5,856 nucleotides of DNA. Source: Octopus sinensis (lineage: Eukaryota). Shown one piece after another: positions 1-5,856 of the stretch (position 1 is the stretch's first letter; each line of letters begins with the position of its first letter). The notes beneath the pieces were generated by a model, which did no database searches, had not been told where the DNA came from, and saw only the letters and a list, made by a program, of their open reading frames with translations. The stretch is taken from the NCBI RefSeq assembly GCF_006345805.1, contig NW_021829533.1, positions 1 to 5,856 of the forward strand. Reading direction: 5' to 3'. The position numbers were made by a program, and so were the translations under genes.

Positions 1-34
1 GTGAGTGAGTGGGAGAGGGTGAGAGAAAGAGAGA
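1..34. repeat. GA/GAGT-rich low-complexity tract (truncated by window edge)
   Basis: gtgagtgagtgggagagggtgagagaaagagaga, seen directly. Confidence 0.7.
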
Positions 35-40
35 ATCTGT

Positions 41-130
41 CCCAGTACTTGAAAGGCACTTTATGTATCGACCCCGAAAGGATAAACGGTAGAGTTAACC
101 TCGATGTGAGATTATAACTCAGAGCGCAAA
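41..130 (-). mobile_element. Old, diverged fragment of SINE family A (central domain)
   Basis: cccagt...tatcgaccccgaaaggataaa...acctcg...aactcaga aligns by eye to the reverse complement of ~603-683 and to 361-445. Confidence 0.75.
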
Positions 131-192
131 GAGCTATCAACGCCACCTGTTGAACTCGATGTTTTGCATTGCACTAAGTCATGTCCCTTAGT

Positions 193-270
193 GTTCTGAG
201 TTTGGTTCCAGTCAAGGTGATCAAAACCAGAAATGCTTGCAGAGTGTCGATAAAATGAAACAGCAGTCAA
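193..270 (+). mobile_element. Possible very degenerate SINE family A remnant
   Basis: gttctgagtt...aggt and gtcgataaaat...cagt occur with roughly the spacing seen in 601-672, but the sequence between them is barely alignable. Confidence 0.35.
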
Positions 271-294
271 TCAATCAAATAATCGGGTTAACAA

Positions 295-494
295 AATAAT
301 CCTTTCTACTATAGACACAAGGCCTGAAATTTGGGGGAGAGGATAGTCGATTACATCAACCCCAGTGTTTAACTGCTACTTATTTCATCGACTCCGAAAA
401 GATGAAAAGCAAAGCCGACCTCGGCGGAATTTGAACTCAGAACGTAAAGCCGGAAGAAATGCTGTTATGCTATCGAATCTGCTAACTCACCGCC
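295..494 (-). mobile_element. SINE family A copy with an alternative 3' tail and an internal deletion in the tRNA-like head
   Basis: The reverse complement reads ggcggtgagttagcaga...tacgttctgagttcaaattccgccgaggtcggctttgcttttcatcttttcggagtcgatgaaataagtagcagttaaacactggggttgatgtaatcgact, matching 534-699. It then continues with a different tail (atcctctcccccaaatttcaggccttgtgtctatagtagaaaggattatt). Confidence 0.9.
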
Positions 495-533
495 GGGTCA
501 GAGACTCGGCTGCAGAAGTACGACAGAACTTCT

Positions 534-948
534 GGCAGCAAGCTGGCAGAAACGTTAGCACGCCGGGCGAAATGCTTAGCGGTATTTCGTCTACTGTTAC
601 GTTCTGAGTTCAAATTCCGCCGAGGTCGACTTTGCCTTTCATCCTTTCGGGGTCGATAAATTAAGTACCAGTTACGCACTGGGGTCGATATAATCGACTT
701 AATCCGTTTGTCTGTCTTTGTTTGTCCTCTCTGTGTTTAGCCCCTTGTGGGTAGTAAAGAAATAGGTATTTCGTCTGCTGCTACGTTCTGAGTTCAAATT
801 CCGCCGAGGTCGACTTTGGCTTTCATCCTTTTGGGGTCGATAAATTAAGTACCAGTTACGCACTGGGGTCGATCTAATCGGTTTAATCCATTTGTCTGTC
901 CTTGTTTGTCCCCTCTATGTTTAGCCCCTTGTGGGCAATAAAGAAATA
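534..948 (+). mobile_element. tRNA-derived SINE family A with a tandem duplication of its 184-bp body (581-764 and 765-948); central block resembles the Deu/Nin SINE domain
   Basis: Pol III A-box-like TGGCAGAAACG at 544-554 and B-box-like GTTCAAATTC at 608-617. The two 184-bp units differ at 13 positions (manual count). The motif ggtcgactttgcctttcatcctttcggggtcgataaattaagtaccag resembles the Deu/Nin domain as I recall it (not searched). Several dispersed copies occur in the window. Confidence 0.92.
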
Positions 949-1040
949 AGATGTACAACAGAAATTTTGGCACCTTAACGAAAAGTGAATATCAGTTTTG
1001 GGATGCCACTTTGATGTGAGGTCTCTCTGGTCATTCACAC

Positions 1041-1229
1041 TTTAGCGTGCAATTTGACCCTAATCCCTAGCCCTAGCCCCAACCATAATCATGACCATAA
1101 ATCCTGAACCATAATCATAAAACCAAAACCTTAACCTTAACCCTAAGCTCTAACCTTAATCCTAATCCTGACCTGGCTCAGGTAATTTCACATCGTAGAC
1201 TACGGAAGCTTTAGTAACTGCATGCTAAA
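1041..1229. mobile_element. Possible old non-autonomous DNA element enclosing the telomere-like array
   Basis: Inverted repeat tttagcgtgcaatt (1041-1054) / aactgcatgctaaa (1216-1229), 12 of 14 positions matching. No convincing TSD. Confidence 0.45.
1057..1173 (+). repeat. Degenerate telomere-like (CCCTAA)n hexamer array
   Basis: ccctaatccctagccctagccccaaccataa...ccttaaccttaaccctaagctctaaccttaatcctaatcctga, about 6-bp period. Confidence 0.8.
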
Positions 1230-1412
1230 TTAGCACCAGTTTTTGTATTTCTAAATGATTAGAAAAGGAAGAGCAGCGTCCGTGGACAGAGTACAGGATC
1301 TCTGAAGATCACACCGAAAACCTGATTGAAGTACTTTCAGTATAGAAGATATCACTAAAGGCACAGGAGGGCCGCGTGATGGAGTTAAACAGCCATGTTA
1401 AATCCACAATAA

Positions 1413-1841
1413 GGATCTTTTCGGTTTGAACGGCAGTTTTTAAAAATAATTTCCACGTAACTATAAACACTTTTAAACTTCGTATACTGGTAGAATGTGT
1501 TTATAAAACATCTTTTTCTCTTGGCTTTATTTAGAAAATTCTATAGTTTGTAAGATATTTGTTGTTGTTTTTTTTTCTTCAATTTCTGCAATTTCAACCA
1601 ATCAATGACGTCTATTGAGGTGAAAACATTCTGTACCGTATGAATATGTCCCTCGTTTAAGGAACAGATTGGGTTTATTTACATTTGTGAAGAAAAAGAG
1701 ATACTCTTTCCCCCACCCCTAACCCTAGCCCTAATCCTAAAACAGATTGAAATGCAATAGATCGATATTAGGGTCATAATTATGGGTGACAATTTCATAT
1801 GACACCGCTAGAAAAAACTGCCGTTCAAACCGAAAAGATCC
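1413..1841. mobile_element. MITE (non-autonomous DNA transposon), 429 bp, 29-bp perfect TIRs, 8-bp TSD; superfamily uncertain (GG..CC ends with an 8-9 bp TSD suggest Merlin or Mutator-like rather than typical hAT)
   Basis: TIR GGATCTTTTCGGTTTGAACGGCAGTTTTT at 1413-1441 and its exact reverse complement at 1813-1841. Direct repeat CACAATAA at 1405-1412 and 1842-1849. AT-rich interior with no ORF. Confidence 0.95.
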
Positions 1842-1881
1842 CACAATAATTCTGGGATAGCACAACACATTTCTGTCTAAA

Positions 1882-1889
1882 TGACGTCA
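1882..1889. promoter_or_regulatory. Perfect CRE palindrome TGACGTCA (function unproven)
   Basis: Exact match to the CREB/ATF consensus in non-repetitive sequence. A single 8-mer can occur by chance. Confidence 0.2.
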
Positions 1890-2066
1890 CATATCTATTG
1901 CTTGAGCGGGGAAGGATATTATTTATTTGTCTGTTATATTTCTATCAAGCAAAACACTTGATCACCTTCTCTCGTAGATGAGTGTGTCTTTACTCTTCGC
2001 GTTTCACTTAAGATGAATCGGTCCAGTTGCTTCCTCTCGGTATTGTAACGAGTATCTTTCCCTCAT

Positions 2067-2068
2067 CA

Positions 2069-2112
<44 letters not shown>

Positions 2113-2510
2113 AACACACGCGCACACACACATGCACACACGCGCGCGTACACACACACACTTGCACCCACAGCCACACACACACACAAACACACACACA
2201 CACAAGCTCAAACACACGCGTACTCGCACACACACGCGTGTACACACACTTCCGCCCACACCCATATACACACACACACATATGTATTTGGATACATATG
2301 TATGTGTAAGTATATGTAAAACAACATAAAGCTACACATATACATACGCACACACATGCGCACATGCACACACACACACGCACACACATATATATGCAAC
2401 AAAACTTCCATAAAGTAGAAATATGAAACGAGAATATATAAACATACATATGCATACATATATATACATACACACACCACACACACATTTCATTCTATTA
2501 TGTGTGTGTG

Positions 2511-2568
<58 letters not shown>

Positions 2569-2650
2569 TACATACACACATGTATGTCTCTTCTATTTTA
2601 TGTATGTATGTATGTAGCTATGTATGTATGTAATGCATGTATGCGTGTGT
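2067..2650. repeat. Compound microsatellite: (CA)n/(CACG)n, (TACA)n, pure (TA)n at ~2515-2570, (TATG)n
   Basis: Seen directly. Explains the HT/CV/YI-rich ORFs. Confidence 0.97.
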
Positions 2651-2760
2651 ACAAGCGGTATTGTTTCGGTATCAGTTATAGCTATCTTTGCTCTGAATTC
2701 ATCAAAGGAAAACTTCTCGTTATGTAACAGTAAATTCTTCCTTTATGATAGTACACCTTC

Positions 2761-2850
2761 ACCCACCAACCCACCACCACCACAGCCACCACCACAGCCA
2801 CCACCACCACCACCACCACTACTATCACCATCACCATCTCTACCACCACC
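2761..2850. repeat. (CCA)n trinucleotide repeat, degenerate
   Basis: ccaccaccacagccaccaccacagccaccacc...; explains the poly-Pro and poly-Val ORFs. Confidence 0.95.
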
Positions 2851-2864
2851 TCTATAATTAGCAA

Positions 2865-3067
2865 CGATCTGTTGGAAATAGGTATTAAATTTCACATATA
2901 AATCTCTCTGTTGTCTTAAAACAGGAAGTACACATTGGGGAAAAATATTCTTTTAGAATATACAACAAAAAATGCGAAAAACGGGATGGTCACGGCTGTA
3001 GCGCCTTGATCATAGATCAATGCGATCAGGGTTGACTTGGGGCTTAACAATGACAACATCAGCAACA
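2865..3067 (+). mobile_element. Possible 3' end of an old retroposon with a stem-loop and a degenerate (CAA)n tail
   Basis: Hairpin ttgatc-ata-gatcaa at 3006-3020, followed by ...ttggggctt and the tail aacaatgacaacatcagcaaca (3046-3067). The 5' boundary is a guess and there is no second copy in the window. Confidence 0.35.
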
Positions 3068-3077
3068 TTAATAGAAC

Positions 3078-3082
3078 TATAT

Positions 3083-3134
<52 letters not shown>
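3078..3134. repeat. (TA)n microsatellite
   Basis: Seen directly. Confidence 0.98.
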
Positions 3135-3135
<1 letters not shown>

Positions 3136-3232
3136 CGGGAAGCTTTATGAAAATAAACAAAAGACGAAGGCAGGTGGAAAACAAACGAACAATTGTATTA
3201 GTATGGCGCTCAGGAAATATAAATAAAACAAG

Positions 3233-3270
3233 TCTTTAACGTTTCGAGCCTACGCTCTTCAACAGAAAGA
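3233..3270 (-). ncRNA. Minimal type I hammerhead ribozyme-like motif (variant core)
   Basis: Minus-strand RNA: UCUUU [stem I] CUGUUGA A GAGC-GUAG-GCUC [stem II] GAAA CG UU^ AAAGA [stem I']. The palindromic ACGU replaces stem III, and the putative cleavage triplet is GUU. One deviation from CUGANGA (A6 to U). Confidence 0.72.
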
Positions 3271-3439
3271 TACACAGAGAGAGAAAAACACAGAAAGGAG
3301 AGAAAAAAAATGCGTGCAGTAGCTAACGAATCAACATGGCGATCTGATTTCGGCCAGAGGTCAAAGATCAAACATGAGACGCGAGAGCGAAATAAGGGGA
3401 GATAATAGGGTTGATAAAAGGGTTGAGGGACCAGCTAAA

Positions 3440-3785
3440 AGTGCGTGGGAGGGGTCTGGATGTGTGTATGTATAGGGTTGGTGTATGTATTAGTATGTAT
3501 AAGGGTGTGTGTGTGTGTGTGTGTGTGTGTATGAGAGAGTATTAGTGCGTAAGATTGGTCTGGACGTGCGTATGTATGGGGTTGGTGTATGTATTAGTAT
3601 GTATTAGTATGTATTAGTACGTATTGGTATGTATAGGTGTGTGTGTGTGTGTGTGTGAGAGAGAGTATAAGTACGTATGCGGGGTCTGGACGTGTGTATG
3701 TATAGGGTTGGTGTAAGTATTAGTATGTACTGGTATGTATTAGTACGTATTAGTATGTATTAGTTGGTGTGTGTATTAGTATGGC
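3440..3785. repeat. Hierarchical minisatellite: three ~104-126 bp units with nested 10-bp (GTATGTATTA)n and (GT)n
   Basis: Anchor ggtctgga(c/t)gtg(t/c)gtatgtat(a/g)gggttggtgta at 3453, 3557 and 3683. Confidence 0.9.
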
Positions 3786-3825
3786 ACATCATATGTGATG
3801 TGATGTGTAAAGTCATGTGGTGTAG

Positions 3826-4090
3826 TGAGGAGAAGAGGGGGAGGGGGAGAAGAGGGGGGAGAGAAGGCGAGGGGGAGGAGAAGGGGGAAGAGGAGAGGAT
3901 GGGGGAGAAGGAAGGGGAGGAGGGGGATGAAGGAGGAAAGAGGGAGAGGGGGAGAGAGGGAGTGGGGAGCAGAGGGAAGGGGAAGAGGGAGGGAGAAAGA
4001 GGGAAGAAGGGAAGGGGAGTAGGGGTGAAAGGATGAAGGACTGAAGAAGTAGGGGTCGGGGGGAGAAAGGATAGGTGAGGAGGGGGAGAG
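3826..4090 (+). repeat. Polypurine G/A tract with many G4-G6 runs (G-quadruplex/triplex potential)
   Basis: About 265 nt, almost all purine on the + strand. Explains the G/E/R- and P/S/L-rich ORFs. Confidence 0.9.
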
Positions 4091-4122
4091 TTGAGACCAA
4101 ATGGCGTATAAGAGCGAAGAGA

Positions 4123-4124
<2 letters not shown>

Positions 4125-4162
<38 letters not shown>
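4125..4162. repeat. (TA)n microsatellite
   Basis: Seen directly. Confidence 0.98.
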
Positions 4163-4164
<2 letters not shown>

Positions 4165-4165
4165 A

Positions 4166-4476
4166 GGCGCAATGGCCCAGTGGTTAGGGCAGCGGACTCG
4201 CGGTCGTAGGATCGCGGTTTCGATTCCCAGACCGGGCGTTGTGAGTGTCTATTGTGCGAAAACACCTAAAAGCTCCGCGACGCTCCGGCAAGGGGAGGTG
4301 GCGATCCCTGCTGTACTCTTTCGCCACAACTTTCTCTCTCATTCTTTCTTCTGTTGGCCTGCTCGCTTAGCCAGCGGGGTGGCGTCGTTCAAAGGCTAAA
4401 ACAGTGCGAATCGCATTGTGACCAGCGATGTGTAGCCACATCTGATAGCCTGGTCGGTCACGGTGATCATGGTGAT
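4166..4476 (+). mobile_element. tRNA-derived SINE family B, apparently full length
   Basis: A box TGGCCCAGTGG at 4173-4183, D-stem GCCC/GGGC, and B box GGTTTCGATTCC at 4216-4227. A non-tRNA body follows and ends in a 9-bp tandem tail, cacggtgat catggtgat (4459-4476). TA repeats on both flanks. Confidence 0.85.
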
Positions 4477-4490
4477 ATATACATATATAT

Positions 4491-4690
4491 CGGGCGAAAT
4501 GCTTAGCGGTATTTCGTCAGTCGCTACGTTCTGAGTTCAAATTCCGCCGAGGTCGACTTTACCTTTTATCCTTTCGGGGTGGGTCGATAAATAAAGTACC
4601 AGTTTCGCACTGGGGTCGATGTAATCGACTTAATTCCTTTGTCTGTCCTTGTTTGTCCCCTCTATGTTTAGCCCCTTGTGGGCAATAAAG

Positions 4691-4695
<5 letters not shown>
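4491..4695 (+). mobile_element. 5'-truncated SINE family A copy (monomer)
   Basis: Near-identical to 564-764 and 765-948. Lacks the A box and has a 4-nt gggt duplication near 4577-4584. Confidence 0.93.

Positions 4696-4724
<29 letters not shown>
4694..4724. repeat. (TA)n microsatellite
   Basis: Seen directly. Confidence 0.97.
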
Positions 4725-4726
<2 letters not shown>

Positions 4727-4727
<1 letters not shown>

Positions 4728-5140
4728 GCGCAGGAGTGGCTGTGTGGTAAGTAGCTTGTTTACCAACCACATGGTCCCGGATTCAGTCCCACTGCGTGGT
4801 ACCTTGGGCAAGTGTCTTCTACTATAGCCTCGGGCCGCCGAAAGCCTTGTGAGTGGATTTGGTAGACGGAAACTGAAAGAAGCCTGTCGTATATATGTAT
4901 ATATGTATTATGTTGTGTGTGTGTTTGTGTGTCTGTGTTTGTCCCCCTAGCATTGCTTGACAACCGATGCTGGTGTGTTACGTCCCGTCACTTAGCGGTT
5001 CGGCAAAAAGAGACCGATTAGAATAAGTACTGGGCTTACAAAAAAGAATAAGTCCCGGGGTCGAGTTGCTCGATTAAAGGCGGTGCTCCAGCATGGCCGC
5101 AGTCAAATGACTGAAACAAGTAAAAGAGTAAAAGAGAGTA
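4727..5140 (+). mobile_element. tRNA-derived SINE family C with a CORE-like motif, internal (TA)/(TG) microsatellite and stem-loop plus tandem-repeat tail
   Basis: A box TGGCTGTGTGG at 4737-4747 and degenerate B box GATTCAGTCCC at 4780-4790. Acceptor-stem-like pairing GCGCAG/CTGCGT. accttgggcaagt (4801-4813) resembles the start of the MIR/CORE domain. Terminal hairpin cagtc-aaat-gactg at 5100-5113 and tail (AGTAAAAG)2 at 5119-5134. Confidence 0.85.
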
Positions 5141-5237
5141 TATATATATATACATAGACATTACTCTCTCTCTCTCTCTCTCTTTCTCTTTCTCTCTCTC
5201 TCTTCTTTCTCTGTCTCTTTCTTCCTCTCTCTTTCTC
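5139..5237. repeat. (TA)n followed by a (CT)n/pyrimidine tract (5164-5237)
   Basis: Seen directly. Explains the ER-rich minus-strand ORF. Confidence 0.95.
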
Positions 5238-5456
5238 AACATGCCTTTAGGTATTTCTTAAAAATTTGTAACTTAAGACGAGACACCTATCTACCTGCTT
5301 TTCTAAAAACGTCTTCTAAAATAAAAGCATCGCTGCCTGATACTGATGCCGATGCCGATGACGATTCTGTTGCCATTTTCTTTTTCTTCTTCATCCTTAC
5401 AACATAATCTAACAGTTGCCTCATTCTCTCTCGCCTTCCGTTTCATCACTTTACAG

Positions 5457-5476
5457 CATTCACGAACCCGTTTACG
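5457..5476 (+). other. Candidate 20-nt microexon of an unidentified host gene
   Basis: CTAAC at 5409-5413, a ~40-nt pyrimidine-rich AG-free tract (5416-5454), acceptor tttacag|, exon CATTCACGAACCCGTTTACG, and donor ACG|gtaagg. It lies in non-repetitive sequence. No transcript evidence. Confidence 0.45.
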
Positions 5477-5715
5477 GTAAGGAGACAAAATTACACACCA
5501 GAATAAAAAAAATGCCTGCTTTTTGTCTGCCGTTCAATGTATCACCGTTTATCATTCGAGAAATTCTGCCTCGCATAACGTCATACCAAAGCAACCTTAT
5601 TTAACTACTTCATTTTTCACGACAGTGTATTTTACCCTTTACATGCAACAGATAGCTCGGCAAGAAGACTAAAGGAGGAAAAGAAATCTCAACGCAGACA
5701 ATTTCTCGCACGATT

Positions 5716-5789
5716 ATTTTTCATGTGTTTGTTTTAGTTTTGTTTTTGTGATTTTGTGCTTTTGTTTTTTGTTTTTTTGTTTGTCTTTC
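5716..5789. repeat. T-rich (GTTTT)n-like low-complexity tract
   Basis: Seen directly. Confidence 0.8.
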
Positions 5790-5831
5790 ATACAAGTCGT
5801 CGACTTCAACGTGTTCGTCTCTTCCGCTTAC

Positions 5832-5856
5832 TCTCTCTATCTCTCTCTCTCTCTCT
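5832..5856. repeat. (CT)n microsatellite running off the window end
   Basis: Seen directly. Confidence 0.9.

Follow-up and report, generated by a model that had tools for sequence, protein, structure and literature searches.

A minimal hammerhead motif with U at core position 6 in an abundant Penelope-like retroelement of Octopus sinensis

We analysed a 5,856-nucleotide (nt) stretch of Octopus sinensis DNA (the window; NCBI RefSeq assembly GCF_006345805.1, contig NW_021829533.1, positions 1 to 5,856), whose minus strand carries at 3233..3270 a predicted minimal type I hammerhead ribozyme (min-HHR) with the core CUGUUGA; it is part of a Penelope-like retroelement (PLE) and lies in its 3' end. 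Read directly from 3270 down to 3233, the motif begins with the 5' strand of stem I, UCUUU (3266..3270), which pairs over 5 bp with the 3' strand AAAGA (3233..3237). At 3270, the outermost base of stem I, the younger subfamilies of the element have U, whereas the older ones have an unpaired C. The core C3 U4 G5 U6 N7 G8 A9 follows (3259..3265), with the variant U6 at 3262 and N7, which is U, A, C or G depending on the subfamily, at 3261. An extra unpaired A between A9 and G10.1 (9a, position 3258), which is characteristic of min-HHRs from Penelope elements (Cervera and De la Pena 2014, PMC4209133), leads into stem-loop II, GAGC(GUAG)GCUC (3246..3257; 4 bp, 3257-3254 with 3249-3246, closed by G10.1-C11.1), in place of which older relics carry GGGC/GCCC and other loops. 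The remaining stretch (3238..3245) holds G12 A13 A14 A15.1, the palindrome A15.1-C-G-U16.1 (3242-3239) and N17 (a U at 3238), and the predicted cut falls at 3238/3237. The first-pass annotation, made from the letters of the window, had proposed both stems, the GAAA box, the ACGU palindrome, U6 and this cut site, and a re-reading of the minus strand reproduced it exactly.

The motif matches the hammerhead core consensus (C3 U4 G5 A6 N7 G8 A9, G12 A13 A14 A15.1, U16.1) at 10 of 11 positions, the exception being U at position 6. It also has the stem I, the stem II with G10.1-C11.1, the extra nucleotide 9a, the palindromic 15-16 and the NUH triplet of PLE min-HHRs, and apart from position 6 it fits the min-HHR consensus in the supplement of PMC4209133 (U-rich, NNN CUGANGAH G..C GAAAN palindrome NUH NNN). 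A looser pattern matched once in the window and in none of 200 shuffles. The 38-mer gave a folding z-score of -2.2, with 5/200 shuffles folding equally well, and the signal was lost once flanks were included. Scans with Rfam, run without a canonical min-HHR as control, returned no hammerhead match at E<=10 and only microsatellite-driven miRNA noise. We accepted the motif as real because of its copy number and its fit to the published consensus, and not because of folding energy.

The element that carries the motif is 4.3-4.5 kb long and protein-coding. Its protein, reached in the longer copies, combines a reverse transcriptase (RT, with YIDD), a Cys linker (CSRPRCRTC) and, at its C terminus, a GIY-YIG domain with CCHH-type residues. 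In one such copy (L326), a 963-aa open frame matched RVT_1 (E 1.6e-7) and, at a score below the Pfam cut-off, GIY-YIG (E 0.0028); this type of open reading frame (ORF) had 141 homologues, the top ones labelled with RT and related Pfam domains. Within the pseudo-LTR (pLTR) the motif lies ~0.85 kb past the ORF, and in tandem copies it is found upstream of the ORF as well: in four of the seven long-ORF loci fetched it stands on both sides of the ORF, at a spacing of 4.3-4.5 kb and with direct repeats of 0.65-1.4 kb, and in these four pLTR-ORF-pLTR loci both motifs have U6. By the criteria of Craig 2021 (PMC8557442), namely the CX2-5CxxC linker and the (TA)n bias, the predicted protein and target make this an endonuclease-bearing (EN+) PLE of the Neptune/Nematis type. 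The motif is thus, as judged from sequence, a minimal hammerhead in the 3' end of a very abundant, (TA)n-targeted PLE, and the first-pass annotation's assignment to the Penelope-type min-HHRs was borne out by the ORF domains, the pLTR layout and the fit to the published consensus. Identity as a retrozyme or a short interspersed element (SINE) was ruled out once the ORF was found.

The copy in the window is a 5'-truncated, solitary stub on the minus strand (3135-~4125). It comprises the last 16 codons of the Penelope ORF (IFSLRSYTPFGLNSPP; 4078..4125, where the copy is truncated, and with ~30 nt holding the stop missing), the 3' untranslated region or pLTR (3271..4077, pyrimidine-rich, with 126-bp internal repeats), the motif, and the element's 3' tail beyond the predicted cut (3135..3232), whose fixed end ...CCCGT is joined to (TA)n, as the 3' junctions of 30 loci show. 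(TA)n microsatellite repeats, the target, flank it at the 3' junction (3078..3134) and the 5' junction (4125..4162). Being solitary, this copy lacks a second motif with which to dimerise in cis. A search with the 286 nt surrounding the motif found 531 candidate loci in the 2.7-Gb genome, the 40 best-scored of which are 99-100% identical to the window copy. Their 5' ends vary, 13 of 29 paralogues stopping inside 3437-4064 and 16 extending past 4125, and copies are mostly solitary, with 3/99 neighbour gaps below 6 kb among the matches listed. Inverted tail-to-tail copies occur at C1:20251810/20251934, and C23:128996-191575 holds two tandem ORF pairs in mirror arrangement, ~60 kb apart. At the pLTR-ORF junction of three loci (L324, L328 and L330) TATATATT comes after the element's 3' end, and an ATG that opens a frame of 44 codons only stands 111 nt past the predicted cut; the start of the long ORF lies further downstream, possibly behind an intron. 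The TA run inside this junction mirrors the (TA)n target.

U6 is the state of the family rather than of this copy. Exact 32-mers were counted 4,425 times in the genome with U6 and 5 times with A6. A pattern that left positions 6, 7 and 9a free gave 14,188 matches, with U6 in 99 of the 100 matches listed and all four bases at N7; patterns one base shorter found 176 copies with A6 and 401 with C6 or G6 (G in 10/100 among the matches listed). The share of U6 is therefore ~96% of 14,188, with A6 and C6/G6 counted by near-identical patterns. Because these patterns demand an exact stem II, the counts are lower bounds, and a 20-nt anchor in the tail finds 16,811 places. The minority alleles at position 6 (C ~360 > A 176 > G ~40) follow the ordinary mutation spectrum. 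In 20 A6 loci inspected the flanks match ordinary N7 subfamilies, and seven A6 copies lie scattered among U6 copies in a tree of the flanks; A6 copies within the family are thus mostly point revertants, none of them amplified, with a few basal ones that could go back to an earlier A6 stratum.

A private inactivating mutation in the window copy was thereby ruled out. The first-pass annotation had left open whether the core was a family-wide variant or a decayed copy, and had expected the genomic copies to tell. Their consensus does have U at position 6, which upholds the family-wide alternative, while the next base, N7, varies by subfamily (U, A, C, G) instead of being fixed; the two options named there left out the attenuated and non-cleaving readings that fit best. 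Its further argument, that two intact stems speak against decay, is weak: the window copy's stems are uninformative because the copy is simply young, as its near-identity to the best-scored paralogues attests, and the case for selection comes from comparing subfamilies. Runs labelled as eight organisms (20 runs) contained 0.77-0.96 of 26 words of the stretch. Allele tables from 8 runs, one of them (X13) without coverage of the motif and one (X9) with a single contig over it, list variants at N7 (once also at N17) but not at position 6; since alleles that do exist are missing from them (A at N7 from both tables, N17 alleles from one), we did not count this weak evidence. As to expression, no RNA dataset was among those listed as containing the stretch, and the runs guessed as RNA consisted of contigs without end or strand information.

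We then compared variation inside and outside the motif. An anchor lying in the tail and not in the motif was used to take 90 segments, which came from contig C1 and from the first 91 places among the 100 listed; 25 were truncated or too decayed and were set aside, leaving 65 complete copies, and a column was scored variable if at least 6 copies shared a non-major allele. Position 6 was U in 64/65 copies (with one gap). None of the 11 core columns and none of the 19 columns of the stems, 9a and 15.2-16.2 was variable, whereas both free positions (N7 and N17) and 30/90 flank columns were; for 0/30 core and stem columns against 30/90 flank columns the Fisher p was 5e-5, with the caution that columns are not independent and that the flank alignment is noisier. 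One of the two outer stem I columns varied. N7 was U in 39 copies, A in 10, C in 8 and G in 8, and N17 was A in 37, U in 27, C in one and G in none. On a weakly supported tree, N7 (3261) apparently changed about four times along the lineage (U, G, A, C, U), which is more often than flank columns typically did.

Looking for alternative stem II sequences returned 27 matches in one search and 10 in another. The latter 10 have GGGC/GCCC as stem II, and six of them have U6, six different loops and the family's tail (five clearly); among these U6 relics one has UCU/AGA as stem I and three have C17. The other four, with A6 and more distant flanks, are likely to be sister lineages. On 19 hand-picked rows, 8/10 hammerhead pairs showed double-sided changes, a score that 0/500 shuffles reached. 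The covariation of stems I and II that the first-pass annotation had suggested looking for is thus found as compensatory changes in the older relics.

Related elements indicate in which direction position 6 changed. Other Penelope-type motifs in the fetched loci of the Octopus genome have A6 (CUGAUGA, UUGAAAA and UUGANAA families). An alignment query of metagenome contigs returned 80 loci with related ORFs; viral contigs held none, and neither did metagenomes when queried with a single protein. Beside these ORFs, 12 of the 80 loci carried 15 motifs, compared with none in five shuffles, and 14 of the 15 have A6. The one with U6, at 2787-2830 (+) of locus L256 (contig JAAUXV010067574.1), lies ~285 nt behind a distant PLE ORF and has a U3-A8 pair, perfect stems and C17; its U6 may be peculiar to this copy, or it may mark a second origin of the A6-to-U6 substitution (A6U). 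The flank tree (34 rows, 3/31 inner branches starred, with a long-branch warning) places the A6 sister L242 inside and the U6 relic L235 outside and does not root the lineage, so the polarity rests on the outgroup motifs: because the other Penelope families here and 14/15 related motifs have A6, A6 is most likely the ancestral state. Among the families of this genome, L182-L206 represent another abundant PLE family with a Cys linker; its min-HHRs have U3-A8 (UUGANAA), lack the extra nucleotide and carry the palindrome ACCGGU, and their N7 and loop II vary by subfamily. Two or three further A6-core min-HHR families (L029, L087, L088, L194; L022, L073, L084) have UUGAAAA with CGCG or CCGG palindromes, or CUGAUGA with a 6-bp stem II.

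What U6 would do can be considered through predicted folds. The monomer is predicted to form a longer hairpin with U4-U7 paired to A14-G16.2, not the open hammerhead core, a point that the first-pass annotation had missed. With a predicted U6-A15.1 pair, stem I would lengthen to take in both the core and the palindrome ACGU (-10.2 vs -7.8 kcal/mol for the open form), a lock of 2.4 kcal/mol per monomer vs 1.7 kcal/mol for the ACGU duplex (duplex -1.7). The pairing probability of U6-A15.1 is predicted to be at least 0.4 in 13/15 U6 rows, and the predicted share of open core is 0.8% for U6 vs 4.2% for a natural A6 copy (L031).

Insertion junctions bear on whether element RNA is cut. Inserted copies retain 102 nt past the predicted cut; their templates were therefore uncut at the 3' motif. 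At the 5' side, a hand count placed the junction at the cut site in 10/47 distinct loci within a 30-nt span, with 3-5 at several other sites. Genome-wide, 30 (TA)n 5' junctions fell at the cut site vs 16 at the equivalent TA site of loop II, the U17 subfamily contributing 25 vs 11 (p = 0.014, uncorrected) and the A17 subfamily 5 vs 5; copies with such a junction make up well under 1% of the family. The excess is a weak hint of some cutting. At C2:131812463, C3:14225643 and C4:55368510, short duplicated pieces of the sequence immediately following the predicted cut stand at the 5' junctions and resemble repeated template jumps at that site.

The reading that we favour, and to which we give about an even chance, is that the U6 motif is a maintained but attenuated PLE hammerhead whose cleavage would be slow or dependent on help. 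U would have replaced the core A6 in nearly all copies, and slow or assisted cutting would leave most element RNA uncut for reverse transcription. For stem III, two motifs would pair through ACGU; loss of the A6 contacts together with the predicted U6-A15.1 pair would slow its assembly and the cutting, and help may come from the protein that the element encodes or from Mn2+, as in an Anolis PLE (PMC11167929) and in A6C hammerheads. Infrequent cleavage would be of benefit to the element, since a new insertion is copied from RNA in which the 102 nt past the cut are still present. This reading is backed by the fixation of U6, by the hammerhead-shaped constraint on core and stems with compensatory changes in U6 relics, by the second U6 motif with its U3-A8 pair and by the use of uncut template RNA in the Anolis PLE (PMC11167929); for the attenuation, by the predicted U6-A15.1 pairing and by the low published activities of CUGA mutants (PMC9901934) and of natural A6C in Mg2+ (PMC7151607). 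Several points weigh against this. The junction excess is small, coincides with T-A microhomology and is absent in the A17 subfamily, and microhomology or RT pausing in the hairpin could produce it. The covariation score is inflated, as the rows were found by patterns that partly demand the pairs. The lock is a thermodynamic prediction, its pairs at 4, 5 and 6 show no double-sided changes, and monomer misfolding is predicted for many natural A6 min-HHRs too. The second U6 motif, that of L256, comes from a single contig with a frameshifted ORF. Finally, a conserved fold is equally expected if the motif binds protein.

This last point leads to a possible but doubtful alternative, in which U6 ended cutting long ago and the fold, whether hammerhead-like or the U6-A15.1 hairpin, was kept for recognition by the RT or endonuclease or for folding. 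Published activities agree with such a loss: every CUGA single mutant of a type III hammerhead is low in activity (PMC9901934), and a natural A6C hammerhead, weak in Mg2+ and good in Mn2+ (PMC3088659), cuts at 0.004/min in 1 mM Mg2+ vs 0.31/min in Mn2+ (PMC7151607). In the Anolis PLE, PAc, the hammerhead ribozyme (HHR) needs the element's protein in order to cleave, can be dispensed with for insertion in vitro and leaves uncut RNA as the main template (PMC11167929), and whole PLE clades are described as lacking HHRs. The 176 A6 copies, spread over all N7 classes, include no expanded revertant subfamily, and loop II was as invariant as the stems in the main subfamilies (0/4 columns variable), so that constraint there is not purely hammerhead-like, which also counts against the favoured reading. 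Against a dead fold speak the retention of G8, G12, the 3-8 pair and the H17 rule while stem II, loop II, N7 and N17 changed, the joining of the U3-A8 tertiary covariation with U6 in L256, and the small junction excess.

The same published rates make it improbable that U6 is simply tolerated in a dimeric min-HHR, with its 9a and intermolecular stem III, and supports cleavage comparable to A6. The hammerhead-shaped constraint is strong, and the literature covered contains no position-6 mutagenesis of min-HHR dimers, but published changes at A6 lower activity in Mg2+ by orders of magnitude (PMC7151607), the predicted lock exceeds what the ACGU duplex would return, and A6 stands in nearly all related motifs and in the published consensus (PMC4209133). 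Equally hard to credit, and largely refuted already, is a neutral founder effect, by which A6 was lost by chance in a single master copy whose many descendants carry the motif as an unconstrained relic. All U6 copies in the genome could stem from one event, the youth of the window copy means that its intactness says nothing, and position 6 taken alone, with 0 changes vs ~4 at N7 on a weakly resolved tree, has no statistical force; yet the freedom of the flanks and of both free positions beside an invariant core and stems, and the compensatory stem changes in U6 relics, argue against it. A stronger form of the attenuated reading would make U6 a selected safety catch: pairing with A15.1 would keep the ribozyme off until protein, a second copy or Mn2+ opens the core, would have protected full-length templates and aided expansion to >14,000 copies, and would have arisen independently in the L256 lineage. 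We consider this unlikely.

The retention of hammerheads in PLEs is puzzling, given their low activity in vitro and the fact that one reconstituted system does not need them for insertion. The octopus family offers a natural experiment, in that a young, hugely successful family lost an 'invariant' base and kept the rest of the motif, with natural controls in the same genome in the form of A6 revertant copies and A6 sister families. If the motif cleaves, the hammerhead core consensus widens and CUGANGA descriptors miss whole families; if it does not, the fold is conserved for a non-catalytic role.

Elsewhere in the window, a 184-bp SINE-like repeat occurs in tandem and inverted copies (581-948, 4494-4695, 345-470 and 41-103). 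By eye, two repeats with tRNA-like box A/B starts beside (TA)n (4163-4470 and 4725-5130) are probably SINEs, degenerate CCCTAA-like hexamer runs occupy 1058-1173 and 1392-1861, and inverted ends near 1410-1445 and 1810-1845 delimit one segment.

Earlier work had described PLE min-HHRs, U3-A8 cores and a single natural A6C hammerhead. Lunse et al. 2017 reportedly catalogued ~150,000 PLE-linked hammerhead variants, and Arkhipova et al. 2017 are said to have described relaxed hammerhead cores. Literature on core variants and on cephalopod PLE hammerheads yielded no natural A6U hammerhead, with those two works, which may hold it, outside its coverage. The octopus motif resembles the PLE min-HHRs of Cervera and De la Pena 2014 (PMC4209133) in being of type I, with a short stem I, the extra nucleotide 9/10.1, G10.1-C11.1, a palindromic 15.2-16.2 and a U-rich 5' flank, and in its presence in both pLTRs and in mostly solitary, truncated copies. 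It differs in that every supplement row seen has A6, the core variant described being U3-A8, whereas here ~96% have U6, and in a stem II of only 4 bp; dimers of these min-HHRs are slow even with A6 (PMC4209133). With the non-LTR retrozymes (Cervera 2020, PMC7229834) it shares a type I hammerhead and a short palindromic stem III, but those are short non-coding tandem repeats and the octopus motif lies in a coding element. Like the Anolis Poseidon element PAc (Frangieh 2024, PMC11167929), the octopus element has its HHR in the pLTR, reverse transcription starts downstream of it, and inserted copies keep the post-cut sequence; PAc, of the Penelope/Poseidon clade, has an ORF that begins within the HHR, whereas the octopus element's long ORF lies several hundred nt downstream and encodes a CX2-5CxxC linker. 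The Neptune and Nematis EN+ PLEs (Craig 2021, PMC8557442) share with it the RT, the CX2-5CxxC linker (CSRPRCRTC), a C-terminal GIY-YIG, CCHH-type residues, (TA)n targets and partial tandems, and the match is to both groups, by features and not by a tree with named members. A precedent for the core itself is the A6C hammerhead of Bcep176 (Perreault 2011, PMC3088659; Naghdi 2020, PMC7151607), likewise a natural substitution at position 6. That is a single phage sequence with C, assayed and preferring Mn2+, whereas the octopus motif, known from sequence, has U in a dimer-type minimal motif and is fixed across a large animal retroelement lineage; and U6, unlike the C6 of Bcep176, can pair with A15.1.
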